DNA of 64,000 nucleotides from a virus. Taxonomy: Duplodnaviria; Caudoviricetes. The notes below the pieces were generated by a model. It searched no databases, had not been told where the DNA came from, and was given only the letters and a program-made list of their open reading frames with translations. A program made the position numbers and the translations under genes. Shown here piece by piece: positions 8,184-62,636 of the stretch; within the stretch, counting starts at the first letter, position 1, and each line of letters opens with the position of its first letter. The DNA lies in the IMG/VR virus record IMGVR_UViG_3300028886_000042, one strand, 5' to 3'.

Positions 8184-8186
8184 ATG

Positions 8187-8219
8187 TTTGTTGTTTTCTG
8201 ATAAAGCAGTATATTTGCA
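8187..8219 (+). promoter_or_regulatory. Bacteroidetes sigmaA-type promoter
   Basis: TTTG 8187-8190, 19-nt spacer, TATATTTG 8210-8217, then CA. Confidence 0.75.
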
Positions 8220-8291
8220 ATAATATAATCCTTCATTGACAAAAAAAGGAAAAAGGGCTAATTTAATATAAACAGAAAAGCATAAAATTTT

Positions 8292-11500: not shown

Positions 11501-14500
11501 GAGTTCAGTCCCGGTTATTATGATTTCAGAATGGGTAAGAAACCGTTCTATTATGACGGTGCCAGAAAATTTCCGCGTTATGAGAATTCATTCTATTTCT
11601 ATTTCGGATTAACAGTCGGAAAAACAGCGATAGACAAGTTCAACAACCTCTTTTTCGCTGAGTGTTACAACCCACAAGAAGCCGTAAGTCCCATCGCCAT
11701 TGAGACATTAGGCAACACGTGGTGTTCCGAGGCAGATATCACGGATATATATAATGAGAAGAATGACGGCTATGTTAAAATAGACCTGTCAAACATTGAA
11801 CGTCCGTGTGATATCATAATACAGGACAAGAACAGCAAATTTCAGATTAATTTCGATAATGTAATAAACGAGAAGATTATACTCTCAAACAAGGACAGTG
11901 AAGGGTGGACGAGAAAATGCATACAGTCAAAGGATGAGCATGACATTCTCAGAAGCATGTGTGCCTTGGACAACGGAAACTACACAATGACCGTAACTGA
12001 CAGCAGCGGTGAGATTACCGTTGCGGACTTTGATTTGATGTCACCCTATCTTAAATTCGAATATATAAGCACACCGTTCAAGTTCCCGTATAATGTGCTT
12101 GTTACAAGATACGAGGGTGAATTAACAGAGGAACAGTACCTTAAGAAGATAGCCGAAGACAAGGACGGTGTCGATTCGACTGAAAAAACACTGAATACGA
12201 GAACAATCGGTGGTACTATTACTTTGGAAAATGTCGTTGACAGTCTTGAAAACACGGCTTTGGAGTCATATAACATCAATATCACATCAAGCAGTAAGAT
12301 ACCACACTGGTTCAACGGCCTAAACAGCAGTACAGGTTCAAGTGAAACAGAGGAAACAGGTGAAAACTTCATTCTGGACATTGAGGTAAGATATGATTCG
12401 GAAACTAAAACCTGGGCTGTGGATAACCCGTCCGATTATTGGCTGAATGCCGAAAACTACACTGAATCAGGCGGAAGAAGGATAAGCGGTACACAGTTCA
12501 AGTTCATAATCGGCGTACCGAAGGGTGATGAGAGATATAAGGTAACGGTTACACAGTATTGTCCTGTTGAAAACGGACAGGGTACGGTTGAGTTTTACAA
12601 AACGAACAATACTTACACGGAAACTGTATTTGTCAGTGATGTTGTTCCCTACAAACTGTATATAAACGATATAATCGATTATGAGGTTATCAGTCACTGG
12701 GGTTCCGGTTACAAGTTGGAGAATATAAAGGACAAAACGGGTACTGTAACAAAGATAAAACTTGTCAGCAATAACACACCGTCCTCATTTGACAGAAATT
12801 CATTCAGTGATAACTGGCTTAACATATCTGATTTTGACGGTAAGAACGGTGATACTTACAGGTACAAATGGGATAAACTGGTATCATATCAGAAAGCACT
12901 GAAATCATTAAACAACGGATTAAAGGAGGGTTTATATTCCGGTATCTATGATGATTTCACTTATAAGATTAAGACATTAGGTGAAATACAACAGATTAAT
13001 CCGAGAGTTACGGATGCTATATATAATATGTTTGCAAAGGAAGTGCTGCCTGATACATATGAAGGTTTCGAGGAGGCAGTACCTGATGCAGATACATTAT
13101 ATAAGGAGTATTATAATGCCGGAACATATCAGATTAAGACATTACCCCAAATACAGCAGATTAATTCATCTGTAACACAGGAGATATATAACACATTCCC
13201 TGCTACGGTTTCAGCAGAAGAATACAATAGTTTGGATAATATACCTGATGCTAATGTCATATACAAAGCATATTATAATGAGAGTCATGTGGACAAGTAT
13301 TATGAATACAAGGTAATAGAGACTTACAGCATATTCCATGAAGCTGTCTATGATGAAGCAGGAAATGAAATAGAACCTGCATATTACGAGACTAAAGTCG
13401 TAAATGAAGATGGTTTTACATGCAAAGGTTTCCCTCTACGTGATGTTGAAGGCTTCAAGCGTTATATATACAGAATGGATGAAATGGCAGATACGTTACT
13501 TAAGACAAAAAGGTTAAGTGACGGTAATACATGTGTATTCATTGAAGGCATACTGACAAATGACATACTTAACGACCATATTTCATTCATAAGTGAAACT
13601 GACAGTAACAGGGATTCTATTATAGATTTCCTTTATAAGATTAAGAATGCACTGGCTAATGACGAGAATATTGAGGCAAGGGACATTGCAGATACATGTG
13701 ACACAGTAATCGAGGCTTGTGAACGTATTCTTGAAATAAAGGCAGAATTCATTTCGGAAATGAAGAATGCATTTTGGAAAACCTGTCCTGATGAAGAGAA
13801 GAGAGTCAAGTTCAAGGCAGTTACGGAAGATATGCCGGTTGCATTCTATATAGCACATCGTTCTGAAAAGAGTGTTGAGGAAGGTAGTGGAAATACCCTT
13901 GAATACGGTGATGCCAGAACACTTACCTATTCATTCAATCTTGAACGTGACATTGACAATATAACAATACCGTCAATCAGTTATACATCAAGTAAGAACT
14001 ACGGTGCTTATAGAGACAGAGAAGACAGCTACATGGTTGACACCGTCAATTATCCGAATGTCTGTCTGGCACTTGATAACAGTTCACCGTTCCGCGACAA
14101 GCAGAAATATGCATTCTTTGTAGGTGTAATAAATTCATCTGAACAGAGGGTGAACAAACTAAATAAGGAAGAACCGATACCGTTCGGTGATACAGTACCG
14201 GTTGGTATTAAGAATAATGCTGCAAATTCAAATACAAGCAGACTTTTCGGATTCCATGTCATTGACAAGGTAATGGAACTGAAACTTATAAGTTGGGCTG
14301 CATTCAACGGAATACCCTACTATAATCCGAGGAATACGGTAAATGATAAATATGTCACTGACATTGACAAGGTAGGAAGGACAGTTGACATGTGCGGTCT
14401 GCTGTCAGGTAAGATATACAACGGAGTGATAAGTTCTATTGTATACGGTGAAAATAGTCGTAATATAGGCAGTACATTCTTCGAGTCACAGAATGTAGGA

Positions 14501-16324: not shown

Positions 16325-16336
16325 ACAGGAACGTAC

Positions 16337-19300
16337 ATGGACAGCACAAAGATAAGATTAGGCAGGACAGATTCAGTCAATTCAACTGACAGAGCGAATT
16401 ACTTGGATGTGGAGTTAAGGAACACATCCAAGATGATTCATTTTACTGACATAAAAACAACAGTAGACAAACTCGAACAGTTCAAGAAGGAGCGTAACAG
16501 CGGTACAAAATACCGTCTGATAACAACAATAAACCCATACTGTAGTAATGTACTGTTCAATCCGTTTACTGAAATGGTTTATGCTGAGGGTTCAGTCCCA
16601 TATAAGGACGGAACAACAGATTTCAAGGGTTGTGACGGTGTTGTGGACGGTGAATCATTCTTTGACGGTAAGGAATCTGGAAGCGGCAGGACAGATAAGC
16701 CTTCAATGATTATAAAGAAGTCTGTCTATAGCGACAATGAGAAGCCTAACCGTATAGAAATGATAATGAATACTGAATATTCACGTCCCGGTTGTGCTTA
16801 TGACAGTTATGACATAAACGGTAATGTGATTACGGGTGAAAATTATGTATATCATCCGGGATATGACATTTTCGACAATCACATACTGAGAAACAATTCA
16901 TTCAAGATTGTCAATTTCTCAAAGGCAAAACTGTCAGCAAACGAGAAATCGCTGTTCAACACTATAGCCGATAAAATGCGCTATGCTGACGGAAAAATAG
17001 TACAGTACAGAAGAAGAGAGGAATTCAGTGATGACGGAAACGGTGAGAGTCAGGTTTCAAAGGGTAGGGACAAGCATCTGTACAACCACGGTGACATAAC
17101 GGAATTCGGAAACGGCGATGCCATAAATGCTGCATTATATGAAGAGGACGGTTGGTACGGTTTTATAAACAGGTCAACAATACAGTCTAATTCATTCAGG
17201 CAAATCGGTGCTAATGTCAAACCGACAGTACTTAACATAGGCTATGTGATGAATGACAGGAAACCTTGTGAATTTGTCGATATGTACCCTGACAGGACTC
17301 TATATTCATTCAACCCCAAATACAACAGATATCAGCATAGGGAGGAATACAACTGGGAGGTTATACTTACCTACCCTTACAGACATACCAACGATTATCT
17401 GGTTGTAGAGCCTATTAATGTTATTACAGGTACTAGGAAGGAAGGTGAAGAGACTGTTGAGATTACGGAAGAGAGAAGCGGCCTTATGATATTGTCGGCT
17501 GTCAAGACAACAGCACCTAACGGTGAAACGGTTGTTTTATTCAGGAGCCTTACAAAGCACGGACTTAAAGGAGGTGATACCATACGTTTCTATTATCGTA
17601 AGCGTAATACGGAAGGCAACTGGAAACAATACGAGAAGAATTTTGTAGTAAGAAACACAGGTGACTTGAAGAACAACGGAAAGGATTTCTATTTCTATAT
17701 TAATGATTTGGATTTCATACGACTGTTGAACGAAAACTATAATAATACGGATTCAGAACTTAATACTGATAATGTCGATGACAATGACTACCGTTTCAGC
17801 AGGGTTGTCGGAAACGTAACGTCAAAGTACTATATAAGGGTTTTCAGGAAACTCCCTAATTTCAAGTATGCAACAAGTAAATTTCCGGATGACGGAAGCA
17901 AGACCATTGAAGAATATATCGAGGAAAACTCGAAATATCCCGATGATTTCATTGACGAGGAAAAACGCGGAAAAACGGTGCTTTTCGACAAGGAACAGTA
18001 CAAGTTGGCATTTGAATCAACAATTTACAGTGATGCAAGTACACAGGTCACGTTTACTGATTCAATCAACATAGAAAACCTTAAGGATGACAGGGGTTTT
18101 CCGTTAACCGAACTTTATGTAACTGTTATCAAGACAAATTACGGTCATGAGAAATGGTACGGTATAACCGAAGAAGGATTGAATCCTGACAGGATAATAC
18201 GTAACGACAAGGATATAGAATTTTCCCACTGTTTCGGAAAGGTATCTGAGGGCTTGCAGTTCTCGCAGACGAATATAGACCTTAGTGATGAATACATAAG
18301 GGATATAAGGCAGTCATGCGGTGATATCTCGATGATATACAACAATTACAACTACAAATACAAGGAAGAGGGAACAGATAAGGTACGTGCTGAATATTCT
18401 TCACCTTACGGAACGGATATAACGGTTAATGATGATGAGTTCCTTGGTGATATTGTCGAATATAATCAGAACGAGTGTATTGAAAAGATAATACAACCGT
18501 TTATGCACCGTTTCAACACGGCACAGAGGGAATTGAACGATGAAAGGAAATTCAGATGGCGTGAACTGTACACTGATGACTTTGACAAGAATCCCGATAA
18601 TACGGATAATCTGATTAACGGTTTCGAAGTTGATGATAGCAAGTGTTCGTTCAGTGTAAAGGAAGAAGCAGCTGATACGGACATAATTTCACCTACAAGC
18701 CGTTCGGAAGGGTACTATTACCAGCCGCATTACAGGATAGCATTAAGGGAGTTCGGAACCATACTTCAAGACCAGAACAAGGATATTATACTATCTTCAA
18801 TTACACCTGTTCAGTCTAATTCAATTTATCTGAAACTGACAACCGTAAGGAGAAGCGGTGTCAACATAGGTGATATAGTATATATGTACAACCGTAAGAA
18901 TGATGACAGATACAGTTTTACCGTAACTTATATTGAAAGTCCTGTATCATTTTACATAATACCTTATATGGACAGTGACAATCCATGGCACGAACTGTTT
19001 GAAAAATGTAAGATGAACTGGTTGGATATATGCAATCTGTCATTACCGAAGGAAGAAGGTGAACAGTCACAGATTTTCTTCAGGATAAAGAACAATGAAA
19101 TTCCGGAATATGCCGAAAAAGTAGGAAGCAACAAATACCTTTGGAGGGAAGTTCTGAATCCCGGTGATGATAATACAGTAAATCTGCCGGAATATGCATA
19201 TTCAAACGGTACGTTCTATATAACAAATGAGATAAATTTCTTCATGAGAAGGCAAGACCCTCATGGATGGAACGGATTACTGTGCAAGGGAAGTTTCCCT

Positions 19301-19372
19301 AATGACATTTCCGGTAATATCAGCCGTGAATCTAATTATGTATACAAGGACGAAAGGGAAAAGGTATGCTAA
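16337..19372 (+). CDS. putative baseplate/tail structural protein (1011 aa)
   Basis: Tightly packed in the structural operon; no specific motif. Confidence 0.6.
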   Translation: MDSTKIRLGRTDSVNSTDRANYLDVELRNTSKMIHFTDIKTTVDKLEQFKKERNSGTKYRLITTINPYCSNVLFNPFTEMVYAEGSVPYKDGTTDFKGCDGVVDGESFFDGKESGSGRTDKPSMIIKKSVYSDNEKPNRIEMIMNTEYSRPGCAYDSYDINGNVITGENYVYHPGYDIFDNHILRNNSFKIVNFSKAKLSANEKSLFNTIADKMRYADGKIVQYRRREEFSDDGNGESQVSKGRDKHLYNHGDITEFGNGDAINAALYEEDGWYGFINRSTIQSNSFRQIGANVKPTVLNIGYVMNDRKPCEFVDMYPDRTLYSFNPKYNRYQHREEYNWEVILTYPYRHTNDYLVVEPINVITGTRKEGEETVEITEERSGLMILSAVKTTAPNGETVVLFRSLTKHGLKGGDTIRFYYRKRNTEGNWKQYEKNFVVRNTGDLKNNGKDFYFYINDLDFIRLLNENYNNTDSELNTDNVDDNDYRFSRVVGNVTSKYYIRVFRKLPNFKYATSKFPDDGSKTIEEYIEENSKYPDDFIDEEKRGKTVLFDKEQYKLAFESTIYSDASTQVTFTDSINIENLKDDRGFPLTELYVTVIKTNYGHEKWYGITEEGLNPDRIIRNDKDIEFSHCFGKVSEGLQFSQTNIDLSDEYIRDIRQSCGDISMIYNNYNYKYKEEGTDKVRAEYSSPYGTDITVNDDEFLGDIVEYNQNECIEKIIQPFMHRFNTAQRELNDERKFRWRELYTDDFDKNPDNTDNLINGFEVDDSKCSFSVKEEAADTDIISPTSRSEGYYYQPHYRIALREFGTILQDQNKDIILSSITPVQSNSIYLKLTTVRRSGVNIGDIVYMYNRKNDDRYSFTVTYIESPVSFYIIPYMDSDNPWHELFEKCKMNWLDICNLSLPKEEGEQSQIFFRIKNNEIPEYAEKVGSNKYLWREVLNPGDDNTVNLPEYAYSNGTFYITNEINFFMRRQDPHGWNGLLCKGSFPNDISGNISRESNYVYKDEREKVC

Positions 19373-21399
19373 AATACAGATTTAACATAAACGACGTTAA
19401 AAACAGGCTTGCATGGTTGGAATTGTCCGATTTCACTGTAAGCAGACTGTTCGGTGACGGTAATGAAGAAAAACTGATGCTGTCATGCTACTGTAAAGAA
19501 GAACTCCCGTTCCGTGAAAAGGGTAAGTTACTTGCAAGTTACGGTCAGGATGTACTTGATGACAATTCACTGACAAGAACGGCTTACAGGTTCAATACAT
19601 CATTCATTCCATCCGGTATAAACTTCGAAAACAGGTCGTTTTCACTGATTTTTGACCGTTTCTATGATACTGCCATAAGAATGTTGGGTATCTATGAGAC
19701 TGAGGAAGAGACCGAAGGAGGTGAAACGGTAAATACAAAGTGGTGGCTTCTGTATTTCAACGGGAAGCATCTGTTTGATGTTACAAACGGTGAAATATAC
19801 AAACTATACATAACATACGACTGTCCGGGCGGTTTTCCTTCTGTCATAGAGGAAGAGTATGAAGATAATATTCTTCCTGACGGCCTTGAAATACTGTATG
19901 TAAGTGATAAGATAGGAAAGGAAGTAAAGGAAGGTGTATATACAAATGCAGAGGTACTTACCGGAACTATTATCCGTGTAAAATACGATGTCCTTTTTAA
20001 GGATGATACACCGACGCTTCTGTATAATTCCCTATACTATACAGAAAACGGAGTATTGAAGTATAATCTCTCAAATGCAAGGTTTTTCCGTGACAACTTC
20101 ATTTTCACAACCGGTATGTTCGATTTGTACTACGACAAGCCGATGACCTCATTATCATTACCGTTAAGCAGTACTTTTTCAACTGATTTAATGGAGGATG
20201 ATGCCATAAGGACTGATTTTACGAATGCTGAAATAAGAAAAGCGATAAACAGTTCACCTGACATGGAGAAGGATGTATATCATCCTGTAATATGGAAAAC
20301 AGAGATGTTTTTGGACAAATATGTGTTAAAGTCAGGTGAAACCGGCAAGGATTACCTTAATGAAAAGGAATACAGCAGCCTTACTGAGGCAGAAAAGGAA
20401 AAGTATACTGTAAATGACAGTCCTGAAATACCTGATGACAATTACGGATATATAAAGGACAGGATATATAAGATACGATTCAATTTTCATTTCAGATGTC
20501 ATGAGGGTGAAGACTGGATAGCTGACAACAATTCTTTTTGGAACGGTGTTACTGTCAATGCAGAAGGTAAGCCTGAATTCGTTACGGATTATTTCGGAGC
20601 AGGTTTTACAAACAGGGAGGAGTTGCATTCGGATTTGCTATATTATCTGGGTTTCAACAACAAGGACGTAAGGTACCAGAAAAACAAACTTAAGAAATCA
20701 TTTATAAGGCTCATGTTTTTCGATTCGGTAAATCCGGCAAATCAGAATCTGTTGGCTTATTCCACGGTATTCCTTGACAGCGGACTGTATTTCAGCAAAT
20801 ACGCAAGGTATATTGAGAAGGAAGGCTATACATCAGTAGAGAAAAACGAGGATGACGGAAATTACATTGTTAAAAAGGACTTGACCGGTATAAAGGTTGA
20901 CAGGGAGCCTACCTCAACTTCACAGGAAGAAAAGATAACGAACAGAACAGATACGGACAAAATAGAGGAAGTGAGACTGAGTTCACAGATAACGGTAAGG
21001 GACAAGTATTCTTCCGATTCTTCAAGCGAGGGATTCTACCTGTATCTTTGGAAGGAAAATTTCCTTGGTACATATCCCCAGGACCTGTACATGAAGATTG
21101 AATTCAACCATGCGGGTTTCGGAAGGACGATACCGTTTATGTGTCCGTTCAATGAAGATATAAAGGGTTTCAAGTCATTCAGGGAAATACTTAAGGACTG
21201 GGATAATACAGTAAACGGTGAAGAAGCCGGTTATGGTATAAGGAAATTCCTTAAGTATTCATACATACATTTCAAGTATAAGTATGACAAAGTATCAGGA
21301 CAGCATCTGTATTACCTTGATGATGAGTTTTATGGTGATTCCGTGTACTTTAAGGACAATGCTATAACAATAAACCTCTACGAGGCCAAAATAAATTGA
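19366..21399 (+). CDS. putative structural protein (677 aa)
   Basis: Overlaps the previous stop; structural operon context. Confidence 0.6.
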   Translation: MLKYRFNINDVKNRLAWLELSDFTVSRLFGDGNEEKLMLSCYCKEELPFREKGKLLASYGQDVLDDNSLTRTAYRFNTSFIPSGINFENRSFSLIFDRFYDTAIRMLGIYETEEETEGGETVNTKWWLLYFNGKHLFDVTNGEIYKLYITYDCPGGFPSVIEEEYEDNILPDGLEILYVSDKIGKEVKEGVYTNAEVLTGTIIRVKYDVLFKDDTPTLLYNSLYYTENGVLKYNLSNARFFRDNFIFTTGMFDLYYDKPMTSLSLPLSSTFSTDLMEDDAIRTDFTNAEIRKAINSSPDMEKDVYHPVIWKTEMFLDKYVLKSGETGKDYLNEKEYSSLTEAEKEKYTVNDSPEIPDDNYGYIKDRIYKIRFNFHFRCHEGEDWIADNNSFWNGVTVNAEGKPEFVTDYFGAGFTNREELHSDLLYYLGFNNKDVRYQKNKLKKSFIRLMFFDSVNPANQNLLAYSTVFLDSGLYFSKYARYIEKEGYTSVEKNEDDGNYIVKKDLTGIKVDREPTSTSQEEKITNRTDTDKIEEVRLSSQITVRDKYSSDSSSEGFYLYLWKENFLGTYPQDLYMKIEFNHAGFGRTIPFMCPFNEDIKGFKSFREILKDWDNTVNGEEAGYGIRKFLKYSYIHFKYKYDKVSGQHLYYLDDEFYGDSVYFKDNAITINLYEAKIN

Positions 21400-42261: not shown

Positions 42262-42480
42262 ATGAAAATAACCGAGAGTCAGATAAGAAGAATAATCCGC
42301 GAGGAACTTACAAAGCAGGAAGTCCGTAGTATGATTGACAGTCAATTGTCATCATATTCGAACGGACGTGATTTAAAGAAGGCTATAAGAAACGTTGCAG
42401 TTGACATTATAGATGAATTCTTCCATGAAATGTGGATGAAGAACGGTTTTTGGAAAAGTTCACTTAAAAACAAGGGGTAG
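42262..42480 (+). CDS. small protein with N-terminal KITES.IRRIIREE motif
   Basis: 72 aa; ATATTTATA box at 42237-42245. Confidence 0.75.
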   Translation: MKITESQIRRIIREELTKQEVRSMIDSQLSSYSNGRDLKKAIRNVAVDIIDEFFHEMWMKNGFWKSSLKNKG

Positions 42481-50523: not shown

Positions 50524-51201
50524 ATGCTTGACAAAGATTTAAGGCTTTTTACAACAAGTAGGGGAGTTGACGGAAATACATTCGATGAATACCAGAAGTA
50601 TAACTTCAATAATATGTACATAGAACCTACTGTCATTGAGGAACGTATGAACCATTCAATGACTTCAATCTCAGTGTATTCAAGGTTACTGATGGACAGA
50701 ATTATATTCCTTGGTACTGAAATAAATGATGATGTGGCAAATATAATCACGGCACAGCTTCTGTGGCTTGAACAGCAGGGAAACAGTGACATTACACTTC
50801 ACATATCAAGTCCGGGAGGCAGTATATATTCCGGTTTGGAAATAGTTGACTGTCTGAACTTCATAAAACCCGAAATTTCAACAGTTTCTATGGGTATGGT
50901 TGCTTCAATGGCATCTGTCATAGCAAGCTGTGGTACTAAGGGTAAACGTTTCATACTTCCACATGCAAGGTTCCTCGTACATCAGCCCTTACAAAGCGGA
51001 GGCGGTGTAAAACAATGCAGTGACGTACAGATTCAGGCAAAGGAAATACAGTCACTAAAGGAGGAATTACAGCAAATGCTTGCCGATAATAGCGGACTGC
51101 CATATGATGTTATCGAAAAACTCTGTGACAGAGATACTATACTGACTGCACAGGAAGCCATTGACTATGGATTTGTTGACAAGATAATAACAAAGAAATA
51201 A
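50524..51201 (+). CDS. clpP: ATP-dependent Clp protease proteolytic subunit
   Basis: YSRLL.DRIIFLG, I.SPGG, catalytic ASMAS, HQP, DRD..LTAQEA..YG.VD.I. Confidence 0.95.
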   Translation: MLDKDLRLFTTSRGVDGNTFDEYQKYNFNNMYIEPTVIEERMNHSMTSISVYSRLLMDRIIFLGTEINDDVANIITAQLLWLEQQGNSDITLHISSPGGSIYSGLEIVDCLNFIKPEISTVSMGMVASMASVIASCGTKGKRFILPHARFLVHQPLQSGGGVKQCSDVQIQAKEIQSLKEELQQMLADNSGLPYDVIEKLCDRDTILTAQEAIDYGFVDKIITKK

Positions 51202-53608: not shown

Positions 53609-54439
53609 ATGGAAGAAAAAACAAGTCTAAAAGAGCGTATGACCGCATTGAGGAGTGTTACCGATTATAAGCTACCGTTAAAATGCTATACTATGGTTGC
53701 CATTGACGGTCATTCATTTTCTAAACTGATTAAAAACAAGTACAAAAAACCCTTTGATGATGAATTCATCCATATGATGAACGAGGTTGCAGAATATGTA
53801 TGCAAGAACGTTGAAGGCTGTAAGTTCGCATATACCCAAAGTGATGAGATTACCTTTGTCCTTACTGATTTCGATACGGAAACGACCTGTGCATATTTCG
53901 GAAACAGACTGACAAAGATATTATCCATAATACCCTCAATGGCTTCTGCAAAGTTCAATCAGCTGGTCATGGCAAATCTGTTGAAGAAAACAGATAATAT
54001 TATGGAAGCAGAAGAACTTATACTTAATCAGAAATTAGCTGATTTTGACTGCAAGGCATGGCCGTTAGGCTCATTCAATGATGTATATGCATATATTCTT
54101 TGGAGGCAGATTGACTGCATAAGAAACTCAAAACAGCAGGCAGCACAGACATGGTGCAGTCATAAGGAGTTATCAGGACTGAATACTGACGAACAGATTA
54201 ATTTGCTGAAAATAAAAACCGGTATTGACTGGAACGAGTTTCCTGATGACAGAAAATACGGAAGGTTTATCTATAAGGAAAAGGAGACCTACTACAATAA
54301 GGATATTGACACTGAATATGAGAGAAGTATTTGGAAAAGCCATGACGCATTTCCTATAACAGGAGAGGAAGGAAAAGAACGTTTCATCAAGCTGAATGTC
54401 ATTCCTGATATCGACAAATGCAAAAATTTCTACTTTTAG
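53609..54439 (+). CDS. tRNA(His) guanylyltransferase / Thg1-like 3'-5' polymerase
   Basis: IDGHSFSK, KPFD..F, YTQSDEI, FD, WRQ.DC.RNS. Confidence 0.92.
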   Translation: MEEKTSLKERMTALRSVTDYKLPLKCYTMVAIDGHSFSKLIKNKYKKPFDDEFIHMMNEVAEYVCKNVEGCKFAYTQSDEITFVLTDFDTETTCAYFGNRLTKILSIIPSMASAKFNQLVMANLLKKTDNIMEAEELILNQKLADFDCKAWPLGSFNDVYAYILWRQIDCIRNSKQQAAQTWCSHKELSGLNTDEQINLLKIKTGIDWNEFPDDRKYGRFIYKEKETYYNKDIDTEYERSIWKSHDAFPITGEEGKERFIKLNVIPDIDKCKNFYF

Positions 54440-54525: not shown

Positions 54526-55023
54526 ATGAGAACATTGATTTTATCAGGCCGTCTGGCTGCTAATGCGGAACAGAAAACCTCAAAGAACGGGAGACAGTAT
54601 TTGGAATTCCGTATGGGTAACAATGAATACAGAAGCGGTGAAAACAGTGAGACATACTGGTTCAGGGTAACATCATTCAACCCTAATCACATGAAGTTAC
54701 TCCCTTATCTTACAAAGGGAAGAACAATTGAGGTTATCGGTGACTTAAGTGCAAGTCCATACATGAGTACGACAACAGGTAAGCCTGAAGCCGGGCTTGA
54801 AGTACTTGCAAATGACATTAAATTTGACGGTAACTTCAGCAAGGTAACTGATACTCAGAATACAGAGACACCGACTGCTGAACAGCCTAAAGTAGAGGTA
54901 AAAACTGAACCCGCAAAGCCAAAGAAAGCTGCTACACGTAATCCTTCAACAGCACCTATTGAAGCACCAAAACCTGCTCCACAGGCTGTAGCAGACAGTG
55001 ATGAGGATGACCTGCCATTCTAA
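54526..55023 (+). CDS. ssb: single-stranded DNA-binding protein
   Basis: L.GRL, T.WF.V..F, YL.KG....V.G.L OB-fold motifs, P/A-rich linker, C-terminal DDLPF tip. Confidence 0.92.
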   Translation: MRTLILSGRLAANAEQKTSKNGRQYLEFRMGNNEYRSGENSETYWFRVTSFNPNHMKLLPYLTKGRTIEVIGDLSASPYMSTTTGKPEAGLEVLANDIKFDGNFSKVTDTQNTETPTAEQPKVEVKTEPAKPKKAATRNPSTAPIEAPKPAPQAVADSDEDDLPF

Positions 55024-55971: not shown

Positions 55972-56005
55972 AAAAATCACCGGTAATAACTACTGGTGAT
56001 TTTTT
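55972..56005. terminator. bidirectional terminator between convergent genes
   Basis: aaaaatcaccggta-ataac-tactggtgattttt. Confidence 0.75.
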
Positions 56006-57158
56006 ATATTTCTTCCAAAGGGGAATTGAGTCCTAAATTCATACCGGGTGTTAATTCAATTGAATTAGTTTCATCTTCATCTTTAGTGTTATTATATTCT
56101 TCTATATATTCCTTAATAACAGATTCTACAATAGCATTAATTCTATCTCTTGATTCTTCCATGCGATAATTATTTTTGTTGTTAATAAGATTATTTATAG
56201 CAGTATCATTAAGTTTCGGAAACCTCTCCTTTAATTTTTTGAAAAGGGAAAAATACGAAGTTGCATCGCACTCAAAGGTTCCGTTGCTTGTTTTAACCGA
56301 GAAAATTCTTTTTGGCTGTTTCTGTACAACTTCCGGTTCTGGTCTCTTTACTGATAATGTCTGACCGCTTGTTTCAGGAAGCATATTCTTCAATTCATCC
56401 AACCATGGTTTTCCTTCAAGATTCCAGTACCTCCATGTTCTAAAATTCTTTTTATATCCTTTATTGAAAAGGAAATCTATAACATCATAATCATTAGTGG
56501 TTACAACTTTATTTCCGCGTTCTTCTTCACTGGTGGATATAACATTGACAAGGTTCTGATTTGAAGTTATTGACAGTCGCACTTCACCGTTTCTATAAAA
56601 TGAAATAACTGCTGTTACGGAAGATTTCTTATTGTTAAGTCTCTTCTCCTTCCTTGCCTTCATTTCATCACTCAGTTCAAGGTTTTTCATATCTTCAGCA
56701 CTTGCCAACCTTTGTATAGTAAATAAACCGTTTGACTTCGAAGAAACTGCATAACCTATTTCCTTAAACTCTCTGCCGTGTGCCTGTTTCGGACAATATC
56801 CGTTCATGTATGTGTAATAATGGCACATTTCATGAACCAAAGTGGCTAAAAACCCCTTTTCAGTACCGCTGTAATTACCGTTTATTGAAATTTTAGGACG
56901 GCAAAGTTCAACAAAATTACTGCTGTCAACATATGTATTTTCATTCCAACCGGGAAGATACATTCTTCTTGAACTTATATTAACCCTGATTCCACTGTTT
57001 GTTACCGAAAACCAACCTAATACACCTCCTTGCGAACCGGGGCCGGTTGTAAATACAGAAAATTCACAGGGCCCTAATTCACTGTTAAAAAGCCAAGAAT
57101 TCATTTCCTGATACTTCTCAGCCATCCAACTTACGGTAGGTTTAAAACTTTTGTCCAT
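56004..57158 (-). CDS. SprT-like zinc metalloprotease
   Basis: N..LF...L, TLVHEMCH, HG.EFK; C-terminal EES...INAIVESVIKE motif. Confidence 0.8.
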   Translation of the reverse strand: MDKSFKPTVSWMAEKYQEMNSWLFNSELGPCEFSVFTTGPGSQGGVLGWFSVTNSGIRVNISSRRMYLPGWNENTYVDSSNFVELCRPKISINGNYSGTEKGFLATLVHEMCHYYTYMNGYCPKQAHGREFKEIGYAVSSKSNGLFTIQRLASAEDMKNLELSDEMKARKEKRLNNKKSSVTAVISFYRNGEVRLSITSNQNLVNVISTSEEERGNKVVTTNDYDVIDFLFNKGYKKNFRTWRYWNLEGKPWLDELKNMLPETSGQTLSVKRPEPEVVQKQPKRIFSVKTSNGTFECDATSYFSLFKKLKERFPKLNDTAINNLINNKNNYRMEESRDRINAIVESVIKEYIEEYNNTKDEDETNSIELTPGMNLGLNSPLEEI

Positions 57159-57436
57159 CAGATTTCCTCAATTTCCTCTTCCTCGGGTTCTTCTTCTTCG
57201 TCAAACAAGCCTAAATCGTAGTTACGGTCAATATGTTCGATAAATCCTTCAATATCATCTGAACTCATCCAGTTCCATAATTCGCTGATAAATGTATCAT
57301 CGCCCAACATTTCGCGTACATCATCCCACATATTGAGAGTGTTCTGATTAATTGAACCTTCGCTGATAATTCTTCTTACTGATTCTCTGATAATATCCTT
57401 TAACATTGATTCTGTTAATCTTTTTTTCTGTTTCAT
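57158..57436 (-). CDS. small acidic protein with N-terminal RLTES.LKDIIRESV motif
   Basis: 92 aa; stop overlaps the SprT start; ATATTTATT box upstream. Confidence 0.75.
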   Translation of the reverse strand: MKQKKRLTESMLKDIIRESVRRIISEGSINQNTLNMWDDVREMLGDDTFISELWNWMSSDDIEGFIEHIDRNYDLGLFDEEEEPEEEEIEEI

Positions 57437-57477: not shown

Positions 57478-57505
57478 AAAAAATGCGCCTATCTCTAAGC
57501 GCATT
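57478..57505 (-). terminator. intrinsic terminator
   Basis: aatgcgc...gcgcatt stem with an A run on the + strand. Confidence 0.55.
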
Positions 57506-57511
57506 ATATGG

Positions 57512-58063
57512 TTATTTCCTACCTAATTTAAGCCATTCTTCTTCCGTGTACCATATATTTTCATTATCATATGCTATATAGGTTACACCTTCCTTAATAC
57601 CCCCTCTGTCACAGAACTGATGGATAATATCTTCTATATGCTGAAGGTTATTGACAATGAATTCATCAAGTTCCCTCAAATGTTCAATTACCTCCTTCGG
57701 ATATTTAGGGCCGTCGGTATCTTCCTCAGTTCCTTTTATTACCTGTTCCGACAAACCGAGTATAAAAGCCATTTGGTCGTACCAGAAGTCGCACTGATAC
57801 AGGTCATATGTATCTATACCGTAGTATTTATCATTATCTTCGTCAGCATAAGCCTTTGATTTCTGTGAAATCCTGTCAATATTATACAGTGTTCTTAATA
57901 CATTCGGGAAGGTATCATTTTTATATCTTTCCAACTCCTTACGTATTGAACGTGTATATTTGGTAAGGTCTGACTTTTCATGATTAATCTCTATTTTTCT
58001 GACTCTGAGGTTTCTTATGAGTTTAAGATGTTCCTCAGTAAATGTTAATTTGATTTTCGCCAT
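57512..58063 (-). CDS. hypothetical protein (183 aa)
   Basis: Last ORF of the minus-strand operon. Confidence 0.7.
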   Translation of the reverse strand: MAKIKLTFTEEHLKLIRNLRVRKIEINHEKSDLTKYTRSIRKELERYKNDTFPNVLRTLYNIDRISQKSKAYADEDNDKYYGIDTYDLYQCDFWYDQMAFILGLSEQVIKGTEEDTDGPKYPKEVIEHLRELDEFIVNNLQHIEDIIHQFCDRGGIKEGVTYIAYDNENIWYTEEEWLKLGRK

Positions 58064-58074
58064 ATTTTTATATA

Positions 58075-58953
58075 TTATCTTACCATGAATTTAGTATTGT
58101 TCTTCATTTTTTTCAATGAAGATTTGATAATTTGTCTGACTCTCTCTGTTGTTATATTTCTTGAACGTGCGATTGACTCAATATGTTTCTCATCACATCC
58201 TATACCATAATACTCCCTTACAATTTCAGAATCACGTTCACCGAGGAGTTTAAGGAGGGTTTCAACAATGTTCTTATTATCAGACTTTACATTATCCTCT
58301 TCCACATTATTAGTGGATGTTATACTTTCATAGGCAAGCGTATCTTCGCTAAGGGAATGTTCCTTCGGTTCAAAGTATGAATCATCTATTGAGGACATTG
58401 TCACAGTTTCTAGGTCGCTTGCGTGTTTCACTGATATATTATATTCCTTTTTGAGGAAATCCTTAAGTTCATGTGCAGTGGGATAACGGTCATTCTCTAC
58501 AAAGAATCTGTTTCTTGCCTTCGGTACATAGGTATAGAGTTTTACTGCGTTGGAAGGAACTAATGCCTTTTCGTTGAATATCACATACTCATTTATATAT
58601 TTTCTTACCCACCATACAGCATATGTAAGGAATCTCTGTTTCTTGCTTAAGTCATAGTTGTCAATAGCCATAAGCAGACCGATATTAGCCTCATTTACTA
58701 TATCCATAAGGTTATCGCCCTTCTGCCAACGCCTGGCAACTGATACAATGAATCTCTGATTACACTCAACAAGTTTCTTACGTGCCTCAGATGATATTAC
58801 CGGATTTTTTGACTTAGCCTTTTTAAGGAGTTTTCTTTCCTCATCGCTTGTAAGGATAGGATAACCCTTAATATCATCAAAATATGCGTTAGTTAACTCC
58901 GTTCTATTCCAAAAGCCACAATCCTGTGACTTACAATCTATCAAAAATGCCAT
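58075..58953 (-). CDS. phage sigma70-family factor (regions 1.2, 2, 3 and 4)
   Basis: YF.DI..YP.LT.DEE..L, LVECNQRF..SVA, D...EANIGL..AI..YD....RFLTYAVWW.R, R.PT..EL, TTERVRQI. Confidence 0.9.
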   Translation of the reverse strand: MAFLIDCKSQDCGFWNRTELTNAYFDDIKGYPILTSDEERKLLKKAKSKNPVISSEARKKLVECNQRFIVSVARRWQKGDNLMDIVNEANIGLLMAIDNYDLSKKQRFLTYAVWWVRKYINEYVIFNEKALVPSNAVKLYTYVPKARNRFFVENDRYPTAHELKDFLKKEYNISVKHASDLETVTMSSIDDSYFEPKEHSLSEDTLAYESITSTNNVEEDNVKSDNKNIVETLLKLLGERDSEIVREYYGIGCDEKHIESIARSRNITTERVRQIIKSSLKKMKNNTKFMVR

Positions 58954-58964
58954 TTTTCTGAAAA

Positions 58965-59489
58965 TTATTTCTTCTTTTTAAGTACAACTGTACACTTATT
59001 TCCCTCTTCACGCGGAAAAGCTTCCGGTACTGATATGTCAGACAGAATATCTATGAACTCGTAAAGGCATTTTTCCGATTCTTCCCTACGTGTAAGTTCC
59101 CTTCCCTTCATAGTAAGTACAACCTTTACCTTATCACCGTCCATAATGAATTTCCTTGCCTTGTTAGCCTTAACATTGAGGTCATTTGAGGCTATGTTGG
59201 TTCTAAGCTGTATCTCCTTTACGGTTGTCTGTACCTTCTTGTTGTTCTTGAGTTGCTTTTTAAGTTCGTACATATACTTTGAATACTCCTCAATTCTGAC
59301 AATCGTAGGATTAGCCTTACCGTTTACCTCAATCAAGTCCTTACCCTCAGAAGAAGCCCTGTTCAGTGCTTCCTTAAACGGTATGATAACTGATTTGTTT
59401 TCACCTTCTGACTTGTATACAAGTCTGACTTCACTACAACCTGTAATTTCGCTGTTAATTCTTGGTTCGTCAAAACCTTTTTTCTGCAT
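58965..59489 (-). CDS. infC: translation initiation factor IF-3
   Basis: RIN.EI....VRLV, EAL..A.....DL.EV, I.EY.KY.YE.KK, KEIQLR..I...DL..K...A.KF...GDKVKV....KGRE. Confidence 0.93.
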   Translation of the reverse strand: MQKKGFDEPRINSEITGCSEVRLVYKSEGENKSVIIPFKEALNRASSEGKDLIEVNGKANPTIVRIEEYSKYMYELKKQLKNNKKVQTTVKEIQLRTNIASNDLNVKANKARKFIMDGDKVKVVLTMKGRELTRREESEKCLYEFIDILSDISVPEAFPREEGNKCTVVLKKKK

Positions 59490-59505
59490 GTTAATGTAAT
59501 ATAGA

Positions 59506-60363
59506 TTAATTTTTGAATTTTCTGATTTCAATAATTTTTATTATGTTGCCCGGTATTTTATCTTCTGTATATACACCTATATCAGAATTAGGGTCTAGAT
59601 AAAAACGGACATTATCTTCGAGTTTCATTATGTCAATGCCTAACAAAGCATATTCTCCGTTATTTCTGCTGTCACCGTTTATAGAACAAAGTTTCTGTCC
59701 TAAATTGTACAACTCAGTCGGTGTTGAATCACCCTTTATGAGGTATATTCTTGGAGGGAAGTGATAAAGAGTGTTTTTGCAGTCAGGTATTAGACCGTTT
59801 TTCAGTATGATATCAGACAGATAATGCGGTGTCCAGTGAAACAACGTGTTATATCTTAACTTTATCGCTTCTGTCTCATCTGTTTGTTTTTCTGATTTAG
59901 GTTCGAACTGTAAAACCTGAAAAGTCATTCCGTTTACTGTCTGAGGCGGCTGCTTCAAGCCTAAAAAATAACCCATCTTATCCATGTCGCGCTCAATTAG
60001 CGTAACATTTATTCCAACAAGTGCGATTATAACGTAAACAGATATCTTGTTTTCTGCCTCGACTTTTTTTACAAGGTCAGAAGAGAAATAATATTTTTTC
60101 CTTATTTTCTCAACTACCTCATCAGCCGGTAATACATCTCCGAAATTTTCATTTAAACCCGGTAAATCTGACAGTATATCATTAAAGGAAGTTACCTTTG
60201 GTGTTAATCTTAAGTCGCGGTAAGCATCCCTTAAAACATTAATGTCAATATCAGATATGTCAATATTTGTATTTGCAGTTTTCTTTTCTAATACTCTGTT
60301 TACGATTTCCGAAATGATATGCTTAAGTTCCCTTTTTGTTATATGCTTTGTTTTTTTCCGCAT
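59506..60363 (-). CDS. putative ADP-ribosyltransferase-fold protein (Tpt1/DarT-like NAD-binding domain) with N-terminal tag
   Basis: LFHWTP....I..NGLIP......PRIYL...L.ID......FY.DP....GVYT...IP...I; N-terminus ITKRELKHIISEIV. Confidence 0.6.
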   Translation of the reverse strand: MRKKTKHITKRELKHIISEIVNRVLEKKTANTNIDISDIDINVLRDAYRDLRLTPKVTSFNDILSDLPGLNENFGDVLPADEVVEKIRKKYYFSSDLVKKVEAENKISVYVIIALVGINVTLIERDMDKMGYFLGLKQPPQTVNGMTFQVLQFEPKSEKQTDETEAIKLRYNTLFHWTPHYLSDIILKNGLIPDCKNTLYHFPPRIYLIKGDSTPTELYNLGQKLCSINGDSRNNGEYALLGIDIMKLEDNVRFYLDPNSDIGVYTEDKIPGNIIKIIEIRKFKN

Positions 60364-60364
60364 G

Positions 60365-60973
60365 TTAATATTGAATAGTTTTTTTCTGTTTGGTTTGTGG
60401 AGGCATAAGATACAGTTCATTCAAAATCTGAAATCTTGCCGGCCACAACTCGTTATATTTATCGGCATCCGTTTCCCTCATTTTCCTTATCTTATCTATG
60501 TTAAAGTCAATCTCCTTGTATTTATCAATCTGAGGATAGTCATAGATATCGAGGTCAACGTCTGTCATTGTTTTATTTATGATTTCCATAACCTTTTCAC
60601 TGTCACCGTTACCGTCAAACCTTGTACAGCCCAACATTGTTGTCATGAGTTTCTTACCCCTGAATTCAGCATTAGCGGTTTCAAGTGAATGTTCAAGTGC
60701 ATCGTAGTCAAGAAAAACCCTTTTACAGTGCGGAAACTTTGCTATATACAGTAATGATATGACAGGTTTGCCTTGAATGGTCATTCTTTTGCCTAATTTA
60801 CGCTCATCACCGTATTTAGTATTGTTGTTTATATTGTCAATATAAGGGTATTTTATAGCCATCTTAGACTGAAAACCGTTAGTCAGCATACAGTATATAC
60901 TCGTACCTACCAAAACGGCATCATAGTTTTCAGTAAACCATATGGCATCCTTACCGGTTATAATGTTAACCAT
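60365..60973 (-). CDS. macrodomain protein (DarG/TARG1-like)
   Basis: I..G.D, DAVLV......M..GF......KYP, LG, DY.ALE.SL, K.L....LGC...DG.G...V..II......D..IY pattern. Confidence 0.7.
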   Translation of the reverse strand: MVNIITGKDAIWFTENYDAVLVGTSIYCMLTNGFQSKMAIKYPYIDNINNNTKYGDERKLGKRMTIQGKPVISLLYIAKFPHCKRVFLDYDALEHSLETANAEFRGKKLMTTMLGCTRFDGNGDSEKVMEIINKTMTDVDLDIYDYPQIDKYKEIDFNIDKIRKMRETDADKYNELWPARFQILNELYLMPPQTKQKKTIQY

Positions 60974-61412
60974 GCGAGTTCAAGTCAATCAGTTGTTTAT
61001 AAAACACAAGATGGGAAGGATGCGTACATTTTTCAAGGTCATCGTAATTCATCCACCTGTATGAATCGATTTCAGGATTAAGTCCGTTATCTGCCATGTT
61101 CGAAAAACACTTTGAAGGGTCGATATTCGGATAGTGCAAGGCGAATGCGGCTACTGTTTTCTTCGGATTCTGTAATACAGTACCCAACGGTATCAGCATC
61201 TTACTTTCACAGTCCTCAAGTGTAAGTCCTGACTCTTCCTTGAATTCACGAATCGCCGTAGTTTGGAAATCTTCACCCTTCTCAACACCTCCTTTAAGGA
61301 ATGCCCAGTAATTACGGTGTTTCCAACTGTTGCCACCCGGATGACCTACGAAAAATTCCATTTGATTTTTATCATTTACCCTGAACGGGATTATTCCTGC
61401 TGAGAATTTCAT
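60966..61412 (-). CDS. NUDIX hydrolase
   Basis: Nudix box GGVEKGEDFQTTAIREFKEESG; SAGII, HPGG..W, PEID...W. Confidence 0.92.
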   Translation of the reverse strand: MKFSAGIIPFRVNDKNQMEFFVGHPGGNSWKHRNYWAFLKGGVEKGEDFQTTAIREFKEESGLTLEDCESKMLIPLGTVLQNPKKTVAAFALHYPNIDPSKCFSNMADNGLNPEIDSYRWMNYDDLEKCTHPSHLVFYKQLIDLNSHG

Positions 61413-61418
61413 CCTATC

Positions 61419-62519
61419 TTAACTGAAATTTTTGCTTTTCTTTAATTTCTCTATGAGTTTACTTTCCTCATTTGATATTGACTTAGGCATTTTGTACTTA
61501 ATCAGTACCTGTAAGTTTCCGTGCGTTCCGTTTCCTCTTGAGAGTCCCTTACCTGTCAATGCTATTACACTGCCTTCTTCAATTCCGCTTTTGACTGTGA
61601 ATTTATATGTTTTACCGTCCAAATACTTAAACGTTCTCTCACAGCCTGTTATACAGTTCAAAACGGGTACTTCGTCAATAAATGCCAAATCATAAGGGTC
61701 GTTAGGTGCAATCTTATATTTACCTTCCTGTGATATTCTGAAGTATATGATAAGGTCTCCGTTAGGGCCTTCAGAGTGTTCACAGTAATTACCCATACCG
61801 CTGATTCTTATCCCTACACCGTCCGTTACTCCGTCAGGTATGTCGATTAAAAGTGCTTCCTCTGTTTTTACAAGCCCTGTACCACCGCACTTCGGACATG
61901 GATTCTTTATTACTTCACCCGTTCCGTTACAGTACTGGCATGGATGTGAATTCTGTATAATACTGAAACCGTACTGGCGTGTTTCGGTAATCATACCTGT
62001 ACCGTGACAGTGCGGACAGACTGTTGACCCTGAGCCGTCCTTAGAACCCTTACCGCCGCATTCCGAACAAGGCTTGAAACGGTCATATCTGATTTGTTTC
62101 TTACCTCTCTTATAAGCCTCTTCAACAGTCAGGGTAACCCTTACCTTAACATCAGTTCCTGACTTTACCCTATGGGTATGGAAACCTCTGAAAGCGTCAT
62201 CATCACCAAACGGACTGAAACCTGTATGATGCATGAAATGCTTAAGTATCTCATCCATTCCGAAACCGCCGAAATTTGAATCAGTAGTCCCGAATGTATC
62301 ATACTGCTGTCTCTTCTGAGGGTCTGATAATGTCTCGTATGCCTCAACTGCCTCCTTGAACCGTTCCTCAGCCTCCTTATTACCGGGATTCTTGTCAGGA
62401 TGGTTCTCCATGGCGATTTTTCTGTATTTCTTCTTAATTGCTTTTTCAAAATCATCACCTTTAAGTTTCTTCTCCTCATCGGTAATGCCTAAAATTTCAT
62501 AATAGTTTTTTTCTGACAT
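61419..62519 (-). CDS. dnaJ: DnaJ chaperone (J domain, G/F region, zinc finger, C-terminal domain)
   Basis: YYEILG, HPDKN, four CxxCxGxG repeats; start ATG 62519. Confidence 0.96.
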
Positions 62520-62544
62520 TGTTACTTGATTTTTTTTTTCTTGG

Positions 62545-62578
62545 TGCAAAGGTAACTGCTTATTTTCTTATATGCAAG
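62545..62578 (-). promoter_or_regulatory. Bacteroidetes sigmaA-type promoter for the dnaJ operon
   Basis: Minus strand: CTTG (62575-62578), 20-nt spacer, TACCTTTG (62547-62554), then CA. Confidence 0.6.
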
Positions 62579-62599
62579 AATAAAAGGTTAAAAAAGCTT

Positions 62600-62636
62600 A
62601 AAAAGCCCCTAAGCAGAATATACTTAGGGGTCTTTT
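62600..62636 (-). terminator. terminator after dnaK
   Basis: cccctaag...cttagggg stem flanked by A/T runs. Confidence 0.7.

Follow-up and report, generated by a model that had tools for sequence, protein, structure and literature searches.

In a 64,000-nucleotide (nt) stretch of DNA from a tailed virus (Duplodnaviria; Caudoviricetes; IMG/VR record IMGVR_UViG_3300028886_000042), which is referred to here as the window, three abutting minus-strand genes at positions 59506 to 61412 encode a NUDIX hydrolase, a macrodomain protein, and a protein with the fold of an ADP-ribosyltransferase (ART). An earlier note, made from the sequence alone, had described the three as a self-contained, coupled circuit that writes, erases, and recycles ADP-ribose. 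The comparison with related phages favors, at somewhat better than even confidence, a locus composed of two elements of different age: an old NUDIX-macrodomain pair and a recently inserted accessory gene for a KptA-like ART-fold protein.

Three abutting genes in a chaperone-translation-sigma run

The NUDIX gene (148 amino acids [aa]; 60966-61412, minus strand), the macrodomain gene (202 aa; 60365-60973, minus strand), and the ART-like gene (285 aa; 59506-60363, minus strand) were confirmed as open reading frames (ORFs) with the junctions claimed earlier. The NUDIX stop and the macrodomain start share the 8-nt overlap ATGGTTAA at 60973-60966. The macrodomain stop TAA (60367-60365) is separated by one base (a 1-nt gap) from the ATG of the ART-like gene at 60363. 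An alternative in-frame ATG lies upstream at 60420 and would extend the product to 304 aa; alignment of homologues favors the start at 60363. Homologues were grouped into 69 clusters for the ART-like gene and 101 for the macrodomain gene, which was recognized by its predicted fold.

The placement of the trio inside a dnaJ-infC-sigma run was borne out by Pfam. On one side are DnaK (>63999-62638, minus strand; HSP70, 1e-126) and DnaJ (62519-61419, minus strand; DnaJ, 5e-22), and on the other are IF3 (59489-58965, minus strand; IF3_C, 4e-24) and a sigma-70-type factor (58953-58075, minus strand; Sigma70_r2, 1e-12), followed by a conserved 183-aa protein with no family match (p183; 58063-57512, minus strand). 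A minor correction concerns IF3: its most likely start is the ATG at 59489, which lies 16 nt past the ART-like stop and not inside the ART-like gene; the relative L007 (93% identical) has the same arrangement.

Linkage of the three genes in related phages

From IMG/VR, 33 macrodomain loci were collected, each with flanks of 10 kb. All 33 contain the module DnaJ-(NUDIX or AAA ATPase)-macrodomain-(p183)-IF3-sigma. NUDIX lies directly upstream of the macrodomain gene in the nine closest loci, as well as in L004, L007, and the window; in more distant relatives (L018-L040, at about 8870-10004), an AAA ATPase of approximately 350 aa (Pfam AAA, 2e-10) replaces it, and the ATPase stop overlaps the macrodomain start. 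Thus, NUDIX and the macrodomain are a genuine conserved pair among the closer relatives, which the ART-like gene would have joined recently.

The ART family has a different distribution. Searches with a hidden Markov model found it within 10 kb of the macrodomain gene in none of the 33 loci. Whole-record searches covered 15 of the macrodomain records, of which 8 are at least 95% complete; the family is absent from seven of these eight, all of which carry the macrodomain. Where copies were found, they were elsewhere. In record G002, a single copy closely follows an RNA-ligase-like gene, far from the macrodomain locus (at different record coordinates). The two copies of G009 occupy unrelated places, next to a TnpB-like gene in one case and next to a pyrimidine-dimer glycosylase gene in the other. 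Among 14 distinct ART contexts, the macrodomain and NUDIX genes adjoin only in the window and in its 93 to 100% identical relative L007, and most ART loci have neither gene nearby. In L004, NUDIX-macrodomain-IF3-sigma is intact, with the macrodomain gene directly before IF3, and the ART homologue lies 4.3 kb downstream, just after a DUF4326 gene. Because the family was found near none of the 33 macrodomain genes and is missing from seven of the eight nearly complete records, the ART-like gene is not linked to the other two in relatives; the trio is shared only with the near-identical L007, which by the terms of the earlier note counts against its circuit.

The borders of the ART-like gene suggest how it arrived. 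A direct repeat flanks it: the left copy, ATTAACATGCGGAAAAAA (60352-60369, minus strand), spans the macrodomain stop and the ART-like start, and the right copy, ATTAACATGCAGAAAAAA (59478-59495, minus strand), spans the IF3 start, with 17 of 18 positions identical between them. The repeat pattern matches exactly at these two sites only in 64 kb; with up to two mismatches, it occurs at three sites versus 0.21 expected. L007 has a similar pair of junctions. The repeat suggests insertion into a once-contiguous macrodomain-IF3 junction.

A separate observation concerns L059 (99-1196), from a relative whose complete record spans 339 kb. One ART copy there comes directly after a TnpB-like gene (Cas12f1-like TNB domain, 3e-17), with an 8-nt overlap at the 3' end of the latter, and this neighbor hints at how the ART gene moves.

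The 285-aa protein contains a KptA-like ART fold

The 285-aa protein has no match in Pfam, NCBIfam, PADLOC, or INPHARED, and tblastn against 50,697 isolated-phage records found none. Its AlphaFold2 (AF2) model, with a predicted local distance difference test score (pLDDT) of 83, starts with an N-terminal helix that is basic and amphipathic, continues through an acidic linker modeled at low confidence, and ends in two domains, one alpha/beta and the other, at the C terminus, with the ART fold. The N-terminal leader (residues 1-30; 60274-60363, minus strand; motif ITKRELKHIISEIV) is conserved across the family. The middle domain (residues 78-158; 59890-60132, minus strand) ends in an invariant LQFEP; G131, Y132, and L151 to P155 are invariant, conserved Arg or His is absent, and VIA gave only weak, unspecific ferredoxin-like matches at Z scores of ≤5.8. 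The C-terminal domain (residues 159-285; 59509-59889, minus strand) was assigned to the KptA/Tpt1 C-lobe type by VIA and by profile comparison.

Model residues 160-279 superpose on the NAD+ lobe of Tpt1/KptA proteins from archaea and bacteria (for TkoKptA residues 86-179, VIA Z 10.3; root mean square deviation [rmsd], 2.1 Å over 93 residues; 24% identity). Weaker matches were to CC0527 (Z 8.4), the ADP-ribosylating toxin subunit EcPltA (Z 7.8), and DarT1 (Z 7.7). A family profile run against the PDB matched TkoKptA (E 2.3e-4) and DarT1 (E 6.4e-3). Sub-threshold matches to Pfam PTS_2-RNA (PF01885) were obtained for 9 of 49 family members (best E 0.015), and one of the 49 matched Pfam DarT (PF14487; E 0.026). 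The motifs quoted in the earlier comparison with the NAD-binding domain of Tpt1/KptA and DarT-type ARTs (H-W-T, NGL.P, RIYL, and GVYT..IP) are present, and most of them are conserved across the family; the likeness to DarT1 is the weaker of the two. The family and KptA have in common the motif LYH[GW]TP..NL..IL..GL.P, a C-terminal strand G-V-[WY]-x-T..[VI], and the absence of a catalytic Glu. In an hhalign comparison with Escherichia coli KptA, LYH-TP aligned with LYHGT and G-V-Y-T-E with G-V-W-L-T; R205, which is invariant in the near family, was placed on the catalytic R125 at a probability of only 38%.

Conservation is strict at two positions of the broad family, H176 and G190. R205, N234, Y238, and D257 each reach at least 90% conservation there, and Y207 is present in 48 of the 49 members of the nearer family. 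E267 was considered as the catalytic Glu of an H-Y-E triad and was rejected: it is Glu in 43 of 49 close members but loses conservation in the broad family, and its counterpart in KptA is a Thr. The ART family as a whole conserves no catalytic Glu. The second His of the H-H-h triad of Tpt1/KptA is also not conserved.

The likeness to Tpt1 ends at the C-lobe. Good superpositions are limited to model residues 160-279 (whole-chain rmsd, approximately 5 Å), and the Tpt1 N-lobe was not found; in place of this winged-helix lobe (Arg-His...Arg), the protein has the leader and an unrelated alpha/beta domain. The N-terminal half is neutral to acidic, and in residues 1-158 no Arg or His is conserved at ≥90% in the homologue alignment. 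Lacking the N-lobe and any conserved Arg or His in its N-terminal half, the protein falls outside Tpt1 itself. It is also outside DarT, whose catalytic Glu is not conserved here and whose match is weaker, and yet it shares the NAD+ domain of KptA.

The family is large, with 2,433 clusters at 50% identity for the C-terminal domain at E values of ≤1e-3 and 960 at ≤1e-10. It was found almost only in phage-like metagenome contigs, and no Pfam model exists for it. A profile search of genome contigs gave a single match, to a contig of a Bacteroidales metagenome-assembled genome. Fused or longer forms of the domain were not found, which is weak evidence. In BFVD, comparable stand-alone KptA-like domains are scattered among phages.

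The pattern of residues bears on whether the domain is a transferase at all. It could instead be an NADase, a sensor of NAD+ or ADP-ribose, or an inactive scaffold that lies next to the NUDIX-macrodomain pair by accident. The small number of strictly invariant residues, the second and third ART-triad positions (not clearly retained), and the variable position of the gene among relatives agree with such a role. We consider it very improbable: the conservation of R205, Y207, N234, Y238, and D257 across a family of this size at E values of ≤1e-10 argues for a selected active site, and the ADP-ribose-processing genes that recur beside its members (see below) argue for ADP-ribose chemistry.

The macrodomain and NUDIX proteins

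The macrodomain protein has no Pfam family at E values of ≤1 and no NCBIfam or PADLOC match. Its only library match is to PHROG 335, "phosphatase" (2e-12), and single-sequence PDB searches with it and with the 285-aa protein returned nothing. In tblastn searches of isolated phages, the only matches were at 25% identity, to "phosphatase / O-acetyl-ADP-ribose deacetylase" genes of T4-like Acinetobacter phages. The AF2 model (pLDDT 92.8; 47 homologues in the alignment) places a macro fold in residues 1-149 and a C-terminal helical hairpin at about residues 151-186 (both within 60365-60973, minus strand). Foldseek ranked TARG1 first (E 8e-8), followed by Poa1p and DarG. VIA-align gave Z scores of 19.1 for the Bacteroides thetaiotaomicron protein 2fg1, 18.4 for TARG1, 18.3 for DarG, and 16.8 for Poa1p (rmsd, 2.0 to 2.4 Å over 134 to 143 residues) and of about 15 for viral macrodomains. 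Altogether, more than 300 macrodomain chains matched at Z scores of 15 to 19, with 132 to 143 residues aligned at an rmsd of 2.0 to 2.9 Å. In the model, the three-layer alpha/beta/alpha macro fold is unmistakable over the whole domain. The DarG/TARG1 pattern proposed for the middle protein was thus recovered at Z scores of 18 to 19 despite the lack of a Pfam match, and with the NUDIX result below, all three fold calls of the earlier note are upheld, which is notable for the second and third genes, given that neither has a Pfam, NCBIfam, or PADLOC match.

Seven residues (G23, G33, K37, G115, D120, G121, and G123) are invariant in the macrodomain family. Loop 2 reads G-x-x-x-F-D-G-N-G, with the invariant D120. 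The catalytic Lys of TARG1 is K84 (K80 in DarG) and its partner Asp is D125, which would correspond to D120. Judged by motif, the position matching the catalytic Lys would be K79, at the end of a strand; across 48 members it is Lys in 15, Asn in 15, Gly in 11, and Arg in 4. Thus, the protein resembles TARG1, DarG, and Poa1p in its fold (Z 17 to 19 over approximately 135 to 143 residues) and in its Gly-rich phosphate loops, and it differs from them in its low identity (10 to 19%), its lack of a Pfam Macro match, the variable Lys-equivalent position, and the extra C-terminal hairpin.

The NUDIX protein is a member of the NUDIX hydrolase superfamily (PF00293), as judged from its sequence: Pfam NUDIX was matched at 3.2e-13 (50.3 bits versus a cutoff of 21.1), the PHROG nudix hydrolase family was matched at 2e-16, and a complete Nudix box (G-x5-E-x7-REUxEExGU) occupies residues 41-63. 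The closest solved relatives in the PDB are Ap4A hydrolases, NudI, RppH, and Dcp2, and the best NCBIfam relatives are of the same kinds. The ADP-ribose diphosphatase model of NCBIfam scored 11.7 bits versus a cutoff of 248, and the NudE model scored 17.9 bits versus 169. By similarity, the protein would therefore lie outside the ADP-ribose pyrophosphatase (ADPRase) subgroup (NudF/NudE/NUDT5-like), although ADP-ribose may still be a substrate. The role of ADP-ribose "recycler" assigned to it earlier is unsupported, because it resembles Ap4A hydrolase and RppH and not the ADP-ribose pyrophosphatases.

Neighbors of the ART family elsewhere

Four ADP-ribose-processing folds are found immediately beside the ART gene in 4 of the 14 contexts: the macrodomain, NADAR in L006 (Pfam 8e-41; 2-nt gap), DUF4326 in L004 (5e-11), and a microbial PARG-HD protein in L005 (2e-22). 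In a further context, L055, an RNA-ligase-like gene (2472-3398, minus strand; PF09414, 8e-6, just under the cutoff; KLHGT motif) is followed 104 nt downstream by the ART homologue. The chance expectation is approximately 3% per context, a rough estimate, not a computed test, that assumes about 250 genes per phage with a handful of such genes. Pfam searches of approximately 20 neighboring ORFs of other ART loci identified no remote ADP-ribose-related genes, and tblastn located none of the relatives' ADP-ribose-processing and RNA-ligase copies in the window. The family seems to favor ADP-ribose-processing neighbors, with interchangeable partners.

Two of these contexts gave side observations. 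The RNA-ligase-like gene also occurs in L015 (16618-17490) and L016 (16296-17258), 6 to 7 kb from the macrodomain module. The L005 ART homologue lies in an island (5895-19530) on an otherwise bacterial-looking contig (miaA, rubrerythrin, LysR), which also holds a PARG-HD fusion, an 879-aa Ser/Thr kinase, an AAA protein, a leucine-rich-repeat protein, and a NADAR-like gene; a 76-aa fragment there duplicates ART residues 43-90.

The activities reported or predicted for these partners differ. DUF4326 is predicted to remove ribose-linked phosphates from ADP-ribose, i.e., to act as an ADP-ribose-phosphate phosphatase (PMC9503650). TARG1-like macrodomains and PARG reverse the 5'-phosphate-ADP-ribose made by KptA-like enzymes, as well as thymine- and uracil-ADP-ribose, whereas NADARs reverse guanine- and cytosine-ADP-ribose and not phosphate-ADP-ribose (PMC11833690, PMC13036486, PMC12945103). 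By analogy with DarT and its macrodomain or NADAR, the neighbor pattern would fit a writer kept beside its eraser or antidote. It would also fit a KptA-like, phosphate-directed transfer with ADP-ribose-phosphate by-products to clear.

The first of these fits underlies the circuit of the earlier note, in which the ART, possibly delivered from the capsid, writes on a host target, the macrodomain erases the mark or protects as the DarG antitoxin does, and NUDIX recycles the ADP-ribose. The abutting, probably cotranscribed genes are in keeping with it, as are the hydrolase (macrodomain, NADAR, PARG) or predicted phosphatase (DUF4326) neighbors in 4 of 14 contexts, which recall the pairing of DarT with a macrodomain or NADAR (PMC11543638), and the leader that the ART shares with other proteins (see below). 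A predicted complex of the macrodomain with ART residues 78-285 also points this way, weakly: it scored 0.34 versus 0.05 for the best of three controls, the runs agreed in at least 58% of contacts, and partner pLDDT was at least 86. Of 80 solved complexes, 58 reached the pass mark of this prediction, as did 2 of 110 mismatched pairs, and passing scores of ≤0.60 were seen in only 7 of the 80 solved complexes and in both passing mismatches. The score may reflect the already solved DarT-DarG complexes and was not used for the reading that we favor. Opposed to the circuit are the restriction of the trio to the window and its near-identical relative, the retention of macrodomain and NUDIX without the ART in seven of eight complete relatives, a NUDIX that is not ADPRase-like, the lack of a conserved catalytic Glu in the ART family, and an operon shared with DnaJ, IF3, and sigma with no TATTTAT upstream of the ART-like gene on its strand. 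A self-contained circuit is not borne out by linkage, its recycler is unsupported, and we regard it as rather unlikely.

The second fit corresponds to an RNA-end repair pathway. In that case, the 285-aa protein would be a divergent enzyme that transfers ADP-ribose from NAD+ to the 2'- or 5'-phosphate of damaged RNA, and the macrodomain (as a Poa1p-like ADP-ribose-1''-phosphate phosphatase or a remover of 5'-phosphate-ADP-ribose) and NUDIX would dispose of by-products. KptA/Tpt1 proteins are its closest structural and sequence relatives, including R205 aligned with the C-lobe catalytic Arg, and KptA too has no conserved Glu. One homologue is just downstream of the RNA-ligase-like gene of L055 and another follows DUF4326 (PMC9503650), Poa1p is among the macrodomain matches (Z 16.8), a KptA-Nudix fusion of the Ap4A-hydrolase type exists in Bodo saltans virus (BFVD; PMC9503650), and a Thg1-like tRNA-repair gene lies 5 kb off in the window (53609-54439). 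Still, the protein lacks the Tpt1 N-lobe, to which three of the four catalytic residues belong (Arg-His...Arg), and the N-terminal half that replaces it is neutral to acidic with no conserved Arg or His. With the L055 RNA-ligase-like protein as the query, tblastn found no homologue in the window; no search for a 2H phosphoesterase was made. The gene is also multicopy, mobile, and leader-tagged in the manner of conflict effectors, and it co-occurs poorly with the macrodomain and NUDIX. An RNA-repair pathway is therefore unlikely as well.

The N-terminal leader and the operon

The leader motif [LI]T[EK]..L..II.E[SI]V starts three unrelated ORFs of the window (42262-42480, plus strand; 57158-57436, minus strand; and the ART-like gene from 60363, minus strand), and it also heads small ORFs in related phages (L027, 14377-14697; L046, 9258-9614). 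Among 2,848 ORFs, there were 8 N-terminal and 3 internal matches, an approximately 16-fold N-terminal enrichment over internal positions. The motif contains hydrophobic-x-Glu sites, the kind of site that is cut by the T4 prohead protease. Because the leader holds such sites, loading of leader-bearing proteins into the capsid is a fair hypothesis, suggested by the shared N-terminal sequence.

A terminator scan placed terminator-like hairpins at 62630-62606 and 57505-57482, flanking DnaJ through p183, and the genes between them are closely packed or overlapping. Since the hairpins bracket them, the seven genes DnaJ-NUDIX-macrodomain-ART-IF3-sigma-p183 plausibly form a single transcript, a putative operon at 57482-62630 (minus strand).

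A promoter of its own for the ART-like gene was considered and rejected. The motif TATTTAT is not enriched in the window (36 observed versus 36 expected), and there is no minus-strand copy in the stretch upstream of the ART-like start (60365-60973); it does precede the leader-bearing p92. Sigma-70-like sites are no more frequent in the window than in shuffled sequence. A gene placed within the DnaJ-IF3-sigma operon and lacking its own promoter motif, as the ART-like gene is, is not an obvious candidate for late expression.

A proposed old pair and recent accessory gene

The reading that we favor draws on folds, synteny, co-occurrence, and residue conservation. NUDIX and the macrodomain would be an old, translationally coupled pair in a host-takeover module (DnaK-DnaJ-NUDIX-macrodomain-IF3-sigma-p183) common to a jumbo-phage clade whose hosts are probably Bacteroidales. 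Most likely, the macrodomain is an ADP-ribose binder that takes the group off nucleic acid, protein, or a phosphorylated ADP-ribose metabolite, in the manner of TARG1, DarG, and Poa1p, and the Ap4A/RppH-like NUDIX would cleave a nucleotide pyrophosphate. The pair presumably works without the third gene, most plausibly in counter-defense or in the cleanup of ADP-ribose adducts or signals. In this respect, the alternative raised in the earlier note, that macrodomain and NUDIX act against host ADP-ribose defenses, fits the synteny better than the trio does.

The 285-aa gene, on the same reading, would belong to a large phage family that lacks annotation, as an accessory and mobile member with a C-terminal domain derived from the NAD-binding lobe of KptA/Tpt1, a new N-terminal half, and a leader shared with unrelated phage proteins. 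It would have been inserted between the macrodomain and IF3 genes in a recent ancestor of the source phage. The ART probably uses NAD+ to put ADP-ribose on a phosphate, a nucleic-acid end, or another macromolecule. Since the domain resembles KptA and its family conserves no catalytic Glu, phosphate-directed transfer would appear to fit it at least as well as a DarT- or Alt-like writer. The products of the ART would be typical macrodomain substrates, and this may explain why the insertion persists at this site.

Several points weigh against an old pair with a recent insertion. The repeat is short and overlaps start-codon contexts, and its origin could be something other than insertion. Since many of the metagenomic records are fragmentary, absence of the ART is weak evidence except in complete records. 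The frequency of ADP-ribose-processing neighbors exceeds the rough chance estimate, which suggests that there is room for a writer-eraser link. The mechanism of the macrodomain is uncertain, given that the TARG1-Lys equivalent K79 is Lys in a minority of its family, and enzymatic activities and targets have all been assigned by inference.

A broader proposal, which we put forward as doubtful, is that gut and rumen jumbo phages possess, in the KptA-derived family, a new class of ADP-ribosyltransferase effectors. Such effectors would be loaded into the capsid by the leader and injected with the DNA, and each copy would have as its partner an antidote or an enzyme that processes its product, with macrodomain, NADAR, PARG, and DUF4326 interchangeable in this role. 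In the window, the macrodomain of the takeover module would have been recruited, making the pair a phage-borne offensive counterpart of DarTG.

Relation to known systems

ADP-ribosylation is a main currency of phage-host conflict, as in DarTG, CmdTAC, T4 Alt/Mod, and the phage NADAR AdfN. In jumbo phages and myoviruses, genes for ART, Macro, Nudix, NADAR, DUF4326, and KptA proteins are common; they lie in early host-manipulation regions, or their products are packaged in the virion (Iyer, Burroughs, Anantharaman, and Aravind 2022, PMC9503650), and known phage tools for NAD+ and ADP-ribose include T4 Alt/ModA/ModB, NudE, and AdfN (PMC9503650, PMC11825919). The general theme is thus already well described for phages (PMC9503650, PMC11825919); the architecture of the protein family and the fixed genomic home of the macrodomain are new. 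Text searches of the PMC9503650 survey and of a library of full-text papers found neither a KptA-derived family with a new N-terminal half nor a fixed NUDIX-macrodomain placement in a DnaK-DnaJ-IF3-sigma module.

The locus recalls DarT-DarG in that an ART of the same H-type clade lies beside a TARG1/DarG-class macrodomain, and DarTG1 in that NADAR neighbors the ART family elsewhere (PMC11543638). It differs in that the macrodomain has no DarT-binding domain of known type and is kept in phages without the ART, and in that these are phage genes and not a host defense island. A large family (approximately 2,400 clusters at 50% identity) has put the KptA-type NAD+ domain on a new scaffold, and a TARG1/DarG-class macrodomain is fixed in the chaperone-translation-sigma takeover module of a whole jumbo-phage clade. 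This fixation makes the macrodomain a likely general counter-defense or RNA/DNA cleanup enzyme, comparable to the orphan NADAR antitoxins that T4-like phages carry. The appealing "operon" seems to be a recent assembly, and reading it as an ancient three-part machine would be a mistake.

Other features of the window

The window is part of the genome of a large tailed phage, a jumbo phage of the gut or rumen, in which genes for a baseplate wedge protein, DnaB, NrdD, SbcC, ClpP, SSB, and a Thg1-like protein were identified; related IMG/VR contigs span 88 to 413 kb. From approximately 56 kb onward, the minus strand is the coding strand. Of the 33 related module loci, 32 have a p183 homologue beside the macrodomain or sigma gene, and the exception, L028, is a short fragment; in the distant relatives (L018-L040, at around 10620-11100), the homologue directly follows the macrodomain gene. 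p183 may be a partner of the phage sigma factor. The Thg1-like gene (plus strand; Pfam Thg1, 2e-27), which encodes a tRNA-His guanylyltransferase or 3'-5' polymerase, adjoins SSB (54526-55023), with ClpP nearby at 50524-51201, and it may serve a tRNA-repair function of the phage. The minus-strand block ends with a 384-aa SprT-like zincin (56004-57158, minus strand; Pfam SprT-like, 2e-8), whose gene follows p92 and has one base (57158) in common with it.

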